From: Octopus vulgaris
Taxonomy: Eukaryota
Direction: 5' to 3'
Length of the DNA stretch: 64,000 bases
Assembly: GCA_951406725.2 (NCBI GenBank)
Contig: OX597831.1
Location: forward strand, 21,886,001-21,950,000
Translations under genes and position numbers: made by a program
The notes under the pieces: model-generated
The model's database searches: none
What the model was told of the DNA's origin: nothing
What the model saw: the letters and a program-made list of their open reading frames with translations, nothing else
Part shown: positions 2,296 through 60,302 of the stretch, piece after piece
Layout of the letters: the number at the start of each line of letters is the position of its first letter
Numbering within the stretch: position 1 is the stretch's first letter

Positions 2296-3084
2296 TGTAT
2301 ACATCGTAACTCTTTATAGAAAAAGCAGAGGTCCTGAACGTTCGTGGGGCCTGCTAGTCGATTTCATGGTCCCCAGTACTTCGCTGATATTTATTTTATA
2401 TACCTAGCACACCAGCACCTATACACACAAACAGCTATATATAAACACACACATACGTATAAACATTCATACATACATAAATACATACATATAACCATAC
2501 ACACATACTTACACAGACACACATATATATATATACATACGTTCATCCAAACATACACACACACACACATACATACATGCATACATACATAACTACATCA
2601 TACACATACATATACATTGATGCATATATACACGTTTGTGGATTGAACGAGACAAGACTGAACGTAACAGATGCATCCACATACATGCACGCATAAAATA
2701 ACAATGCATGCAAACATGCATATATACACCAAATGCGATACATACAAAAATGCATGCACACATACACACACAGAAACAGACATACATATATACACACATA
2801 CATATTTATGGATAAAAAGATACATGCATATATACATCCATATGGAGCGAATTGAGCAAGACGGAAAGTAAGTGAAGGCGATATAGTTTAATATGGCTAA
2901 AAGATTCGCTCGCACTTCACACTAATGTAATTATGTTTACAAGTGTAAGTGCAATGTAATGTGGTGCATACGTGATGCAGTGCAGTGCAGTGCAATAAAG
3001 TTCAGTGACTTGCATTGTACTGTGCTCCGTCGATGTCTGGCTCTCAGACAAGAGCACAACACCAAGCAAGTGGACGTAGACGAC

Positions 3085-3151
3085 ATATATACACACACAT
3101 ATATATATATATATATATAATATATATATATATACATATATATATACATAC

Positions 3152-3202
<51 letters not shown>

Positions 3203-3280
3203 TAAGTATATTCAGATTAGTACATATATATATATACACATATACATATAGATATGGATATATAGGTATATGTAAGTATG

Positions 3281-3335
<55 letters not shown>

Positions 3336-3418
3336 GCATATATATGTATGTAAGCATATATATGTATGTATATATATCTATATATATATGTATATATGTG
3401 TGTATATATATATATGTA

Positions 3419-3477
<59 letters not shown>

Positions 3478-16004: not shown

Positions 16005-16306
16005 ATAAGTGTAATATTAATTAATTAGTAATTAATAATTTTACCAAGCAGTGTTCAGTATGTAAAAAGACCATTTACGGTATATTTAAAACATTACTTT
16101 ATATAATTAGGGGGGGTTCAGCAAAAAAATTTACTTTACCACACACCGAACTTTTAGAAATAGCAGCCAAAGAATTTAGCTATTTCCTCTACTGTAAGTC
16201 TGGGAGACTCTTCTTATAGTAGAGGAAATAGCTAAATTCTTTGGCTGCTATTTCTAAAAGTTCAGTGTGTGGGAAAGTAAATTTTTTGCTGGACCCTAAT
16301 TATATA
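16005..16306 (-). mobile_element. Fold-back element A carrying the GGCUGCU structured motif
   Basis: Inverted arms 16100-16198/16213-16306; gaaatagcagccaaa at 16157-16171; P1 16053-16063/16141-16151. Confidence 0.75.
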
Positions 16307-18818: not shown

Positions 18819-18900
<82 letters not shown>

Positions 18901-19200
18901 ATTATAATTATAATTAGAGGCAACGGAGTGGTACCACCAAGCTAGAAATAGCAGTCAAAATCTGACTTTATAACCACATCAAGTCCCGTAAAAATACACC
19001 GGTCCCGTAAAAATATTTGATGTCGCTTTAGAGTCAGTTTTAGACTGCTATTTCTGGGATGGTGGTACCTCTCCGGTACCCTAAATTATAATTATAATTA
19101 TATCATTATATAGCCATAATAATTATTACCTATAAAGTCTTTTTTGTCAATGCTGGCCACTTTATATGAACGGTATTTTAAAATAATGGTCTTATACTCC
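18901..19200 (+). mobile_element. Fold-back element B carrying the GGCUGCU structured motif
   Basis: Imperfect arms 18901-18982/19016-19100; gactgctatttc at 19043; P2 ggtacc/ggtacc 19064-19080; gctggccact at ~19152. Confidence 0.65.
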
Positions 19201-19224
19201 TTATATATAGTCTTTTAGTCTCTT

Positions 19225-22741: not shown

Positions 22742-23146
22742 ATGTGAAATCGTGTTGAAACAGATATTATTGTATTTCGGGATGGTCATTTTGCCAGTTT
22801 AGCCAATGATAACACACGCACTATATATTTGGTGTTACTTTGCTTCAGTGTTATTTATTTTTTACATTAAACTTAATCTTATTTTGGTCAGAGTTCTTTC
22901 GTCACACTCCTGTGACCGCATCAGTGGTCCTTTGCTTTCTTCTTTCTTTTTTGTGTGTCTCTCCTCAGCCATTTTGTATTTCTATTGTCTGTGTCTTCAT
23001 TTGCGCATGCGTATATCTCTATGTGCGTCTATGTTTAGTTAGTGTGTGTGTGGGGGGGCTGTAATATTTGTATCTTCTGTTTATATACGTTCGTGTAATT
23101 TGTTTTTGCTTTTGTTTATTCTTATTTTGTTCATGTGTTTACATCC

Positions 23147-23346: not shown

Positions 23347-24435
23347 TTTTAAAATTAAAAATCAAAAATTAAATTTTTTAAATGTATATAGTTATTTACT
23401 TCCATTTGTTTATTTATCTGTGTATTTTATTTTATTATGTTTTCAGATTTGTTTATATTGTAACCAGTTTATGGGGATCCTGTTCTGTCATATGTTGTGG
23501 TGTGTGTGCTAGTGTTCCATTCCAGTTTCCTTTTCAGGCTACGTTTATCTTCTATTATGTGTCGAGCTTCCGTAATTTGTCTGATTGTTGCGTCTGTTCT
23601 ATGTGTGGACAAGATTTTAACTTTTATGTTGTTGATTGAGCCCCCGTGTTCCTGCTCGGTGTGTTGGTATAGAATCGATGAGCTCTTTCCTTCCTTAAGT
23701 TCTCTCCAATGAACATTTATTCGCTCTCCTATGCTTCGTGCCGTTTCCCCTACGTATGTCGTTGTCTTGTTACTGCATCGTCTCTCTATACATCTTATAC
23801 CATAGACTACATTTCTGGCTTTACAGTTTGTTTGTGGGCTAAATCTACACACAGTACAGTACCTATCCGTACAGGGGGTTCTACTAAAAGGGTAGGTTCT
23901 ACCGATTATGGATTTGATAAGGTTGCCTGGCTTTTCAACAAACTTAATCCTTAGCTTAAGTTTGTCTAGGGTCCTTCTAAAGCGGTACGCCACTTCACCT
24001 CTAGGGGTGGTGTCAACGAACATGACACTCTGGTATTTGTGGCTATCATACCAAGAGTTGGTCTTCCCTATTTTCTTTTTTGTCCTTTCCATAGTGTTCC
24101 ATGTCTTGCTCCTATAGAGTGGGCAAATCCCATTCCTATCATTACATAAGATAGTATCAAATTTCTTCACGCCTCGTTTGTATACTCTGATCCTTTCTTT
24201 ATGGCTGTAACCTGAGAACTGCATGCGGTGAACGAAATGTTGTACGTGTCTCTAACTCTGTAGACTCGCACATGCGGGGCACATTCCGCATTATTCTGAC
24301 GAAGTCTGCCATCAAACCTAAGTTTAATGTAAAAAATAAATAACACTAAAGCAAAGTAACATCAAATATATAGTGCGTGTGTTTTTATTGGCTAAACTGG
24401 CAAAATGACCTTTCCGAAATAAATACAACATCATA

Positions 24436-25037: not shown

Positions 25038-25179
25038 AATTATATATAAGGGCGTTTTTTAAGCACCTGCTTTGCTAAAAATAGGAGTCAAAACGTTTAA
25101 TTTTTGTGACTTCAGAATGTTTCGACTCCTACTTTTAGCAGACCAGATGCTTAAAAAAGCGCCGTTATTATATATAATT
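25038..25179. mobile_element. Fold-back element C (truncated member of the GGCUGCU motif family)
   Basis: Arms 25038-25098/25116-25179; ctaaaaataggagtcaaa variant of the motif. Confidence 0.6.
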
Positions 25180-31415: not shown

Positions 31416-31419
31416 CCTA

Positions 31420-31900
31420 AAAATAAGGCTGTCTGAGAGACACCACCATGCCGAAATAGCAGCCAAATCCCTGACTCTAAAAACCACCTTAAATGTTCAT
31501 ATCGCACCATGGGATAAGACAGAGGGACAAAATAGACTAGCAAAACAGAGATAGGGACGTTCGTATATGTAAGTATAACGTTTGTTCTGTATATATATAT
31601 TTGTATTTATGTGCCCATCTGATATATTCAATTGATGAAGGCAGAGCTTATTTAAAGCAAAGCTAGAAATCCAGGATCTTGTATTATTCAGTAATATCTT
31701 TTTGCTAGTCTATTTTGTCCCTCTGTCTTATCTCATGGTGCGATATGAACATTTAAGGTGGTTTTTAGAGTCAGGGATTTGGCTGCTATTTCGGCATGAT
31801 GGTGTCTCTCAGACACCCTTTTTTTTAGTTGTAAAAAATTATTACCTTTGTATGGTATTTTTTCCCATGCTGGCCACTTGATAATATCGATATTATCCTT
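31420..31900 (+). mobile_element. Fold-back element D carrying the GGCUGCU structured motif
   Basis: Near-identical arms 31427-31545/31700-31818; complete motif 31778-31897; decayed hammerhead words in the spacer. Confidence 0.8.
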
Positions 31901-32124
31901 ATTTATAAATTCATATATATATATATATATATATATGTATATCCGACGCTCTTTCAGTTTTCGTCTCGCAAATCCGCCCACAAGGTTTTGGTCGGCCTGA
32001 GGCTAACAATACGAGACACTTTCCCAATGTGCTATGCTATAGAATTGAACACGGAACCATGTGGCTGGAAAGTAAACTACTTACCGCACACCCAAACCTG
32101 CGCCTACTTCACACGTATTTTTCT

Positions 32125-49190: not shown

Positions 49191-49223
<33 letters not shown>

Positions 49224-49234
49224 GTAAAATATAT

Positions 49235-49581
49235 AGGGTAGCGAATTGTTTTAGAAATTTCACTACCAGTGGCCTAGCATGTATAAAAAGTCAATAGACA
49301 ACATACTCTCCATATAAAATTAGTGTACATTTAAACACAAAAGAGGCGACCTTTAACAAGCAGCCTTACACGCTAGGAGGAGCAGTCAAAACGACCAAAA
49401 ACACGCTTAAGAATTTGAAACCTAGGTATAGCTGTGAAAAAACAAGGTAAAAGTTCTTATTTTTCATTCCCTTCGAGATTGCTTTTAAATGTGGTTTTGG
49501 TCGTTTTGACAGCTCATTCTAGCGTGTAGGGCTGCCTATTAAAGGTCACCAATTTTGTGTTTTAAATCTACACTAATTTTG
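49235..49581 (-). mobile_element. Fold-back element E carrying the GGCUGCU structured motif
   Basis: Arms 49316-49412/49484-49581; P1 cctagcatgta 49273-49283 / tacacgctagg 49367-49377; P4 49237-49267. Confidence 0.7.
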
Positions 49582-54912: not shown

Positions 54913-55039
54913 ATTTAAGCATAGAAAACATTGGAACTCCCCGGGCTATATACATATGTGTGTATGCGCACGTGTATGTGTGTTTGTGAATTTTAAAGTG
55001 TGTGTATGTATATGTGTATATGTATCTATCTATATATAA

Positions 55040-55395
55040 TTAATAAAAGGGTAAAATTAATTAATTAATTAGCTAGTTGATAATTAATAATTTTACCAAG
55101 TAGATCGGTACGTTAAAATAGACTTTCTAGGTAAAATTATACAAATATTCTATAATTATAAACATAATTATAATTAAGGGTCAGCTATTTGCTTCGCCAC
55201 GTACCGAATTGAGAAATAGGAGCTAAAATTCCTTTTCTACTACCGTAAAGATCTCCCAGACAGTAACACACTTTTTTACGAAAGCAAAAGGAAAAAAATA
55301 ACGAATCCACACCACTCAGATTAGCTACATACGCGTTTCGAGATTAAAGTAAAGTTATATTTACTTACATATTTCTCATCTTCAGAGCAGCATTT
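55040..55395 (-). mobile_element. Element F: hammerhead followed by the GGCUGCU structured motif
   Basis: Hammerhead 55324-55391 then motif 55050-55227, both on the minus strand. Confidence 0.7.
55324..55391 (-). ncRNA. Type I hammerhead ribozyme motif
   Basis: gctgct-CTGAAGA-T-gaga..tctc-GAAAC-GC-GTA-tgtagc; palindromic stem III ACGCGT. Confidence 0.75.
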
Positions 55396-55608
55396 CAAAT
55401 ATAAATTTGAGGGTGCTAGGATTAAATATGTACGCGATCGAGCGCCATCGCATAACTGATATTCAACCAACACTTCCAAAAATATGCGGCCAAATGTGAA
55501 CACATATTTATCCTCAATACCCACGTATGCGTTACGAGCAATCCCGCAAGTCTAATATACTTGTTCAAGGAGTAAATTATAATTTCAATGATTGAATATT
55601 AGGTAGGC

Positions 55609-57594: not shown

Positions 57595-57978
57595 TAAATT
57601 AATCAAAATAAAAACATGATGCCAAGGATTCAGCGGTACATATGTTTCGGGCCTTTATTAGACGGATTTATAACAATGCATAATGTGTGCCTATGGCCTT
57701 CTTCAGCTCATTCTACATCAGCCCATTCTACATTGAGAGAAGGACGAGATGGACACTTCATTTTTGTGCTAGTGCCGCATTATGTCGTACGCGAATGAGA
57801 GGATTTGCATCCCCAACGTAGAATTTTTGATGTAATACATGTCCTTGAGGTAGTAATTGTGCGCGGCTGAAGAAGGCCATAGACACACATTATGCATTGT
57901 TATAAATCCGTCTAATAAAGGCCTGAAACATATGTACCGCTGAATCCTTGGCATCATGTTTTTAGTTTGATTAATTTA
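57595..57978 (+). mobile_element. Fold-back element with 113-bp inverted arms containing a hammerhead
   Basis: 57595-57707 is inverted to 57866-57978. Confidence 0.85.
57863..57940 (+). ncRNA. Type I hammerhead ribozyme, canonical core
   Basis: gcgg-CTGAAGA-aggcc..ggcct-GAAAC-ATAT-GTA-ccgc; palindromic stem III ACATATGT. Confidence 0.85.
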
Positions 57979-59129: not shown

Positions 59130-59746
59130 GCATATACACTGGATTTAAAGCATGCACCGGTTTACTGGTAAGCAACGGCATAATGGGAACCATTTGTATC
59201 TCCTCATGTGATTTGCAATTGCTGCACCGTTAGTACAGGAGAGGTTTTTCTTCTAGCTCTTCGTTCACAATACCCAAGCTTATGCAGATATGTACCACAC
59301 GTTCTTGGACTAAATTCTAGCTGTTTTGCAATGTCAGAATCCTTCGAACGGAGTTAGTTTTCCACAATTCTCTTCAAACAGCGAAGCTTCCTTTCCGAGG
59401 GCCCAGGTCGGCTGGGACGAGAATCTATTGATTCTTTTCCTTGGCTTTTGAACTGCACTATAATTCTATTAACACTAGCAAGAGGAATTTGAAGATTTTC
59501 GTCAATTTTTCTCTGGCAATTAGCAGCCTCTAATTGCCCAATAAAAAGGCCTCTTTGAAAATCTGACAGTTCTGCTGAATTTTTTGTGCGTGGCATGGTT
59601 ACTCTTCGCAAATGTTTAATATAATGGCACCTGGAATGAAAAAGAATAATTACATTGTAAATTCTACACCGCTGAAAGAATATCAAGACGTTTCGATCAG
59701 AAATTTTGAAAATTAAGGGTTTCTATTTACTTCCTGCATGTCTGTA
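59130..59746 (-). pseudogene. Tc1-like transposon 5' half (paired-like HTH DNA-binding domain)
   Basis: MPRTKNSAELSDFQRGLFIG..IPLASVNRII..RPSRP..LKRIVEN*..LHKLGY..RARRKPLL; TIR-like cagacatgcaggaagtaaatagaaac next to TA. Confidence 0.8.
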
Positions 59747-59761
59747 TATATAACATACTAT

Positions 59762-60115
59762 ATTTAACAATTAAAGAATGGCCTTAATAGGCCATTCGTC
59801 CACTAGAAAGAGCAGCCAGGACTCAAACCGCTAAGTAGTAGTAATTCAGAAATTAGGTGAAAATTTAAAAACGTTTACCCTAATTCATCTTTAGACGTCT
59901 AAAGATGAATTAGGGTAAACGTTTTTAAATTTTCACCTAATTTCTGAATTACTACTACTTAGCGGTTTGAGTCCTGGCTGCTCTTTCTAGTGGACGAATG
60001 GCCTATTAAGGCCATTCCTTAATTGTTAAATTTATATATTTAGTCTTTGACTATTTTCTCTTTCCCACTAGACCGCTGGTAGCGATAAATGTCTATTGAA
60101 TTTTTTGCTACCCTA
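59762..60115 (+). mobile_element. Fold-back element G: 270-bp loopless palindrome plus complete GGCUGCU structured motif
   Basis: Arms 59762-59896/59897-60031 with one mismatch (59775/60018); motif 59976-60112. Confidence 0.85.
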
Positions 60116-60302
60116 AATTGATTAATATAACATAATCTATGTATTCAAATATATATATAGGTATATATGTGCGTGGTGTGTGTGTGTATGTGCCTGCGTT
60201 CATATGTATGTGTGCTTAACAACATATGCGTATATCTATAGGTTAGTGCAGGTATGATAAATATGGCTAAGAAGCTTGAATTACTTCCGCGTGGTCTTGG
60301 GT

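Follow-up and report, generated by a model that had tools for sequence, protein, structure and literature searches.

Non-coding tandem elements of the octopus genome contain a predicted RNA fold of six helices, which probably functions as a docking and start-site structure for the reverse transcriptase (RT) of non-autonomous Penelope-like elements. The fold was noticed in a stretch of 64,000 nucleotides of the Octopus vulgaris contig OX597831.1 (positions 21,886,001–21,950,000, forward strand), referred to here as the window. Comparison of diverged families, with the base pairs taken from predicted structures, supports selection on the sense-strand fold in these elements. The motif is apparently an undescribed covarying RNA fold: no description of it was found in the literature searched, and the motif words quoted in the preliminary description are absent from the available part of the supplement text of PMC8557442. 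The elements themselves may be catalogued as repeats in Repbase or Dfam.

The fold is predicted to run in the order P0a, Pa, P1a, P2, AU-rich linker, P3, U-run, P1b, P0b and P4. Helix P0 encloses the hairpin Pa and helix P1, P1 closes a loop that holds P2, the linker, P3 and the U-run, and P4 follows outside P0. Copy G, in its own fold, extends over 59961–60112 (+) and comprises P0 (59961–66/60072–77), Pa (59969–72/59980–83), P1 (59986–93/60065–72), P2 (59996–60004/60009–17), the AU-rich linker (60018–40), P3 (60041–45/60049–53), the U-run (60054–64) and P4 (60078–85/60105–12), all on the plus strand. P0 and Pa are two extra predicted helices, with which the fold begins ∼15–30 nt upstream of the coordinates first given for the copies. 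The word that follows P1b (CCACU, CCGCU, CUACU or CUGCU), originally regarded as a free linker, is the 3′ arm of P0, with its partner ∼25–40 nt before P1a. The predicted pairs are AGCGG/CCGCU in family G, GUGG/CCAC in families B, D, E and I and AUGG/CCAU in family J, and in families A and F AGUAG pairs with CUGCU or CUACU; this pairing accounts for the variation of the word between families. The other helix arms that had been quoted occur literally at their copies. The one exception is P4 of copy A, whose 3′ arm is decayed there and intact in the family-A consensus. When the nine family references were folded singly, P1, P2, P3, P4 and the hairpin Pa were present in eight of the nine minimum-energy structures, seven of which contain P0 as well. 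P0 is possible in reference F, which prefers a longer Pa, and the fold of reference H, a single copy, is dominated by the fold-back apex. Copy G (59950–60125) has a folding energy of −49.7 kcal/mol (z = −5.6; none of 200 shuffles was as stable), and the sense strands of the nine references have z-scores of −3.5 to −6.3, which are low on both strands and do not tell the strands apart.

The six full copies of the motif that had been listed, as well as a short copy at 25038–25179, are all present in the window. The full copies represent six different families of high-copy, non-coding tandem elements. In total ∼10 motif families were met, the extra ones in the flanks of fetched loci, where they commonly sit nested with other Penelope-like insertions in a single (TA)n run. 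The genome searched comprises 2.8 Gb in 227 contigs; the best 40 candidates were scored per search and 20–30 loci were taken, and the numbers of first-look candidates (2812 for G, 1984 for F, 2644 for D, 2828 for E, 2502 for A and 516 for B) are not copy numbers. At these loci the families form head-to-tail arrays with periods of ∼470 nt in G, 484 nt in D, 445 nt in E and 550 nt in F; the arrays are flanked by (TA)n runs and in many cases include an inverted arm. Four monomers could be rebuilt, of 485 (D), 461 (E), 555 (F) and 470 (G) nt; family A yielded only a 304-nt partial repeat, and the monomer of family B was not recovered. The nine family references are 54–81% alike, most pairs falling between 58 and 69%, and BLAST among the monomers of D, E, F and G gave a single match, a 46-nt stretch of D and G. 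Family B is the oldest seen, with members 73–85% identical to the window copy. A segmental tandem array of ∼1.9–2 kb contains a family-A copy together with other repeats. The family-G monomer is matched by assembled contigs of four runs with three organism labels, which carry no strand, end or level information. In the window copy G adjoins a transposase-like ORF fragment (59354–59722, −), presumably Tc1/mariner-like, that is also found at another locus. No ORF common to the motif loci was seen among the longest 110 of 187 ORFs; since no shared ORF was found beside the motif copies, translation initiation is an unlikely task for the fold.

The claim that the stems change in sequence while their pairing is kept is borne out by compensatory changes in the family alignment and by contrasts between sister families. 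In a sequence-only MAFFT alignment of seven copies from five families, in which P0, P1 and P4 alone could be assessed (P2, P3 and Pa being unalignable), 13 of the 23 pairs show two-sided change and 83.8% of 160 cells pair, compared with 72.2 ± 2.2% in shuffled and 37–46% in slid-partner nulls; this count, like that of the sister contrasts, uses structures derived from the same sequences, ignores phylogeny and is not equivalent to an R-scape test. On the same alignment of single copies, P0 is paired in 66%. For the sister contrasts (G–K, D–B, A–F and E–I), the pairs of one family were projected onto its sister by sequence alignment. Out of 161 pairs, 118 are the same, 19 are kept by one-sided change, 7 are compensatory and 17 are broken, whereas the null gives 30.1 ± 2.3 broken pairs, with a value as low as 17 in none of 5000 trials. 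The weakest contrast is E–I, in which 8 of 33 pairs are broken. A count on a model-fitted alignment (two-sided change at 20 of 23 pairs) was set aside, as that alignment is fitted and contains truncated arms.

The pairing also points to one strand. The sense fold contains 49 G-U pairs and no A-C mismatches, against 18 and 8 in the antisense fold, and it is more stable than the antisense fold in nine of ten cases (six consensus sequences and four single copies). The G-U bias of the preliminary description therefore favours the sense strand, as had been suggested, whereas CpG decay, named there as a possible mimic, is inadequate as the sole explanation because the bias is present in the family consensus sequences. 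The elements are palindromic and AT-rich, with low z-scores on both strands and an apex that dominates the fold of reference H, so that the helices might be seen as by-products of fold-back formation and base composition. However, they occur within single monomers of direct arrays, show compensatory changes between families, and match a layout descriptor 90 times in 492 kb of motif loci, and 3 times in the window, versus zero times in shuffled genome DNA; an origin as by-products is thereby largely refuted and scarcely credible.

The 3′ ends of the insertions fall at two fixed places in the fold. Among 217 ends from six families, 78 lie in the AU-rich linker, inside the loop that P1 closes and before P3 (End1), 129 lie ∼12–26 nt after P4 (End2) and 10 lie elsewhere. 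Numbered from the cut site of an upstream hammerhead motif, the end clusters are located at 143 and 225–228 in family G, 150–155 and 250–251 in D, 151–156 and 241–249 in E, and 187–192 and 291–312 in F, with a spacing between End1 and End2 of 84–114 nt. In family G, 19 of the 20 End1 calls share one position. Both outward arms are present in 74 of 134 insertions (overlapping loci merged). Of these two-arm insertions 69 combine End1 with End2, one has End2 on both sides and four have another end, the free observation being the other end only, because the choice of loci by their full motif builds in one End2 per insertion. The short arms start at End1 and continue past P2 and P1a, reaching up to 900 nt.

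This anatomy can be followed in the window, where the preliminary description regarded every copy as a fold-back; an inverted arm accompanies copies A, B, D, E and G, and none was found in the window for copy F. The long arm of copy G (59896–60126, +), at 99.6% to the family monomer consensus, runs from the hammerhead cut site to End2, 14 nt past P4, where AT-rich flank begins, and the inverted short arm (59759–59897, −) stops at End1 in the AU-rich linker before P3. Copy D consists of a long arm with hammerhead motif and fold that stops at End2 (31552–31917, +; fold about 31756–31897, +) and an inverted short arm that stops at End1 and is followed by (TA)n (31417–31545, −). Copy F comprises approximately one monomer with End2 (55036–55592, −; fold about 55050–55242, −). 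In copy E the long arm (49218–49412, −) contains the fold, with a decayed 5′ arm of P0, and End2, and the inverted short arm (49410–49580, +) stops at End1. The long arms of copies A (16005–16198, −; with fold) and B (19012–19209, +; fold decayed) are accompanied by inverted short arms that stop in the linker (16201–16306, + and 18880–18984, −, respectively). At E ≤ 1 the covariance model misses copy A. The copy at 25038–25179 (no strand assigned), described as truncated, scores weakly (nhmmer E 1e-4; covariance model E 0.83) and is a fold-back of two short arms from a further family, which have the 5′ word, P1a, P2 and linker and are without P1b, P3 and P4.

As the (TA)n flank noted beside the copies implied, (TA)n runs follow the insertion ends. 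A TA repeat of at least 10 nt is found after 129 of 207 ends, with no difference between End1 and End2, and the median run length in filled sites, the only ones considered, is 17 after End1 and 16 after End2 (p 0.89). End1 sits on UA-rich stretches, and its offset to P3 differs by family, from about −19 to +1; target microhomology may therefore fine-tune the site, and because of such microhomology the exact junctions are blurred. That both ends lie in UA-rich stretches at family-dependent offsets is also what would be expected if the fold were kept for another RNA task (forming circles, stabilising or exporting the RNA, or gating the hammerhead) while the ends were set only by single-stranded UA-rich stretches pairing with a (TA)n primer. 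The accumulation of metazoan retrozymes as self-paired circles, reported in the available part of PMC7229834, is in line with such a task. Yet the monomers contain many other UA-rich stretches that hardly serve as ends, and six diverged families, with references mostly 59–69% alike, keep one layout with the ends at equivalent places, which renders this explanation unlikely.

Upstream of the fold, on the same strand, a type I hammerhead motif is predicted in all four rebuilt monomers. These assignments are based on the core words and stems I–III, Rfam having given no detection. The core words and stems, with a long stem II, are present in D, F and G; E has the core and the long stem II as well, with a stem I of only two clear pairs; for family A there is a decayed match alone, in the 304-nt partial repeat, and for family B no hammerhead was recovered. 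In the window the motif is located at 31632–31678 (+) in copy D, where the first core C is changed to T, and at 55330–55385 (−) in copy F. The fold starts ∼60–90 nt past the hammerhead cut site and the 5′ word of the motif lies 77–107 nt past it. The fold had been called 3′-terminal. This holds only once the DNA is inserted; within a tandem monomer the fold occupies an internal position. The 5′ ends are scattered across the whole monomer, with an excess within ∼8 nt of the cut site (18 of 164, compared with 5.0 expected) that is found in families G (p 3e-4) and D (p 8e-4), is borderline in E and is absent in F. In the window copy G the fold-back apex coincides with the cut site and yet includes 3–4 nt of stem III, so that, instead of cleavage, a snap-back at this palindromic stem could have produced it. 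In family E, 6 of 43 5′ ends cluster at monomer positions 399–402, at the start of the hammerhead core, which may reflect a subfamily break or a real stop. Just past End2, a family-G locus contains box C/D-like words (973–1035 and 1443–1505, −) that match the SNORD52 model with E 0.0015, below its gathering score, and that are lacking in the D and F scans.

The preliminary description considered two functions for the fold, RT recruitment or priming in non-autonomous Penelope-like elements and a second self-cleaving ribozyme. The multi-helix junctions, the conserved 5′ word, the U-run and the sharp ends could belong to a ribozyme that makes RNA ends at End1 or End2, and Rfam is insensitive here, having also missed the upstream hammerheads. 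No Rfam family was found over the motif: the whole window gave 413 matches at E ≤ 1, and the 150 of these that were listed are microRNA models on microsatellites or palindromes, all below the gathering score, while scans focused on the G, D and F monomers yielded no match above noise at the motif. However, no ribozyme model matches the G, D and F monomers at E ≤ 10, the end offsets relative to the helices shift between families, and there are few conserved junction purines. A conserved pseudoknot is also absent, the P3 loop and the U-run having 0–4 possible pairs, unconserved over eight families. Moreover, in the two families tested, G and D, no 15-nt window of the motif shows an excess of 5′ ends (P 0.50 and 0.29), unlike the hammerhead site. 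The claim of a second ribozyme therefore finds no backing in family matches, end sites or 5′ ends, and we consider it very unlikely.

The hairpins could instead act in DNA, if a GIY-YIG endonuclease or a rolling-circle or fold-back transposase recognised their single-stranded or cruciform form and cut at End1 and End2. Sub-terminal inverted repeats combined with a 3′ hairpin are features that we take to resemble Helentron-type elements. Helentron/HINE and MITE DNA transposons have fixed 5′ and 3′ termini; a fixed 5′ terminus is absent here, the 5′ ends being scattered over the whole monomer, and assignment to these transposons was rejected. The Penelope endonuclease of Drosophila virilis needed the tail to recognise and cut plasmid DNA (work cited in the available part of PMC11167929), which would suit a DNA signal. 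The G-U bias, in contrast, suits the sense strand and not the cDNA strand, and the same-strand hammerhead, scattered 5′ ends and monomer arrays suit retrotransposition. A signal acting in DNA is thus quite improbable.

The reading as a docking and start-site structure is the one to which the insertion anatomy points. The insertions show the ‘tail’ signature of Penelope, with a tail on one end and tandem or partial-tandem copies combined with inverted, 5′-truncated copies. The combination of two fixed ends, a same-strand hammerhead, inverted 5′ arms and (TA)n targets makes the first function considered, RT recruitment or priming, the probable one. From this anatomy we infer the link to a Penelope-like RT, together with transcription, protein binding, priming on the UA-rich stretches and joining of two copies. 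In the proposed mechanism, the element would be transcribed to RNA, and a Penelope-like reverse transcriptase-endonuclease, supplied in trans, would bind the fold and cut both strands of a (TA)n run. The UA-rich linker (End1) could then prime one DNA end, while the UA-rich stretch that follows P4 (End2) would serve the second. The two copies would extend towards the RNA 5′ end and stop variably, more often at the hammerhead cut site, and their head-to-head joining would give a fold-back with one long and one short arm.

The closest known system is the anole element PAc, the data on which are taken from the available part of PMC11167929. On AT-rich DNA the purified PAc protein cleaves both strands and extends them. 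Reverse transcription begins within a stem-loop, at two internal sites of the RNA, and the sequence between these sites corresponds to the genomic tail. A 3′-truncation series points to a protein-binding motif at the tail, and hammerhead cleavage is dispensable in vitro. The octopus elements resemble PAc in that two presumed start sites lie inside the element, past a type I hammerhead, and in having a tail on one end only, AT-rich targets, and tandem and inverted copies. Unlike PAc they are non-coding, and they contain a six-helix covarying fold in place of a single AC-rich stem-loop. Their tail is 84–114 nt long, as compared to 30–40 in PAc. Their ends coincide with UA-rich stretches, which match the (TA)n target; PAc, in contrast, starts at a site without homology to its target. 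The part of the PAc study that was available locates the sites without a comparative RNA structure. Since the anatomy matches PAc and the two sites occupy equivalent places in the fold across families, the fold is likely to be an RT docking and start-site signal that works, by analogy, like the start-site element of PAc.

Further similarities are found with other Penelope-like elements and with retrozymes, within the available parts of the sources. A tail at one end and an inverted truncated copy are typical of the Penelope-like group, and the Hydra and Naiad elements of octopus prefer (TA)n (PMC8557442). Hammerheads occur in Penelope-like elements (PMC4209133). The octopus elements share (TA)n targets and hammerheads with Hydra-clade elements (PMC8557442), which in contrast encode RT and endonuclease and, in those sampled in the octopus genome, are without the fold. 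The non-LTR retrozymes of metazoans, of 170–400 nt, for which Penelope-like mobilisers have been proposed, likewise consist of low-GC monomers in tandem that code for no protein and contain a type I hammerhead (PMC7229834). The octopus monomers differ from these in their length of 461–555 nt, in the inverted arms and two fixed ends, and in the presence of a conserved fold besides the hammerhead.

In ciliate telomerase RNA the stems follow in the order I to IV. In the octopus fold a single-stranded copied segment lies in a loop closed by a helix, with one hairpin on its 5′ side, another on its 3′ side and a terminal hairpin beyond. This arrangement is similar to that of the telomerase RNA core (available part of PMC12133305), and the presumed Penelope-like enzyme is related to TERT. 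The fold might accordingly be a template scaffold of the telomerase-RNA kind, in which the helix-closed loop would hold the UA-rich template to the (TA)n primer, P4 and the P0/Pa junction would grip the enzyme, and one RNA, or a pair of RNAs on a protein dimer, would start both strands. We see a small chance that this is so. Unlike telomerase RNA, the fold has no pseudoknot and no template boundary, copies running through P2 and beyond, the (TA)n runs in the filled sites compared give no sign of repeat addition, and no Rfam telomerase RNA match was found over the motif. Despite the similar helix order around the copied loop, the absence of pseudoknot and boundary rules out that the motif is itself a telomerase RNA.

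An autonomous element with the fold was sought among the families sampled, using the best-scoring candidates of each search, and none was found. The covariance model did not match the own ends of a family with proteins of 1312 amino acids (aa), of at least five Hydra-like families or of a 781-aa family; its matches at autonomous loci are neighbouring non-coding insertions. A search for GIY-YIG families likewise yielded none with the fold. It gave no match either in 77 metagenome loci of relatives, and an exact-pattern search of metagenome contigs found nothing. Six descriptor matches in metagenome loci were dismissed as chance, as they lie antisense inside ORFs and one was obtained in the control. 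Of the 1312-aa family, which is autonomous, Penelope-like and abundant (9298 first-look candidates), the window contains the end with Thumb and GIY-YIG (23469–24251, −). This family lacks the motif and has ORFs of up to 1312 aa with a long Asn-rich insert, its own hammerhead near 22890–22925 and a tail of ∼60 nt. In the 3′ repeat of the 781-aa family (2950–3430 of the locus) a TATA-like box comes after CCAAT-like and TGACGTC words in tandem, an arrangement that is likely to be a polymerase II promoter.

At least five Hydra-like families have intact ORFs, of 778, 804, 842, about 900 and about 980 aa, and their proteins contain DKT, and CxxC and CxH around E and N, as described in the available part of PMC8557442. 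The 778-aa family has been recently active, its copies being 97–100% identical among the matches listed, and has two ends ∼50 and 195 nt past the hammerhead cut; a hammerhead-bearing end fragment of the 842-aa family is present in the window at 57600–57720 (−). The Hydra-like families of this genome have the same long-stem-II hammerheads as the motif elements and two ends beside (TA)n. Their post-hammerhead regions, compared in five copies, have a weak consensus fold of a different layout. They also contain conserved words, one of which, just before the first end, reads AACTCC-ATTT, to be compared with AACTCCTATTT in family F; this resemblance to the 5′ word of the motif, seen in the letters, was noted post hoc. 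Because the long-stem-II hammerhead and the two (TA)n ends are common to both, our guess is that the partner may be an unsampled member of the Hydra-like families.

The fold bears on the question of how Penelope-like RTs, which are related to telomerase, select an RNA and the two internal sites at which they start. The ∼10 diverged families provide a covarying fold on which both presumed start sites are mapped, and the question can therefore be tested by helix-breaking and rescue. The elements also give genomic support to the proposal that Penelope-like proteins move the hammerhead-bearing tandem RNAs of animals. If the reading as a template scaffold were true, the fold would show, in a living system, what kind of template RNA was used by the ancestor that Penelope RTs share with telomerase, and would constitute a portable signal to load any RNA onto such an enzyme.
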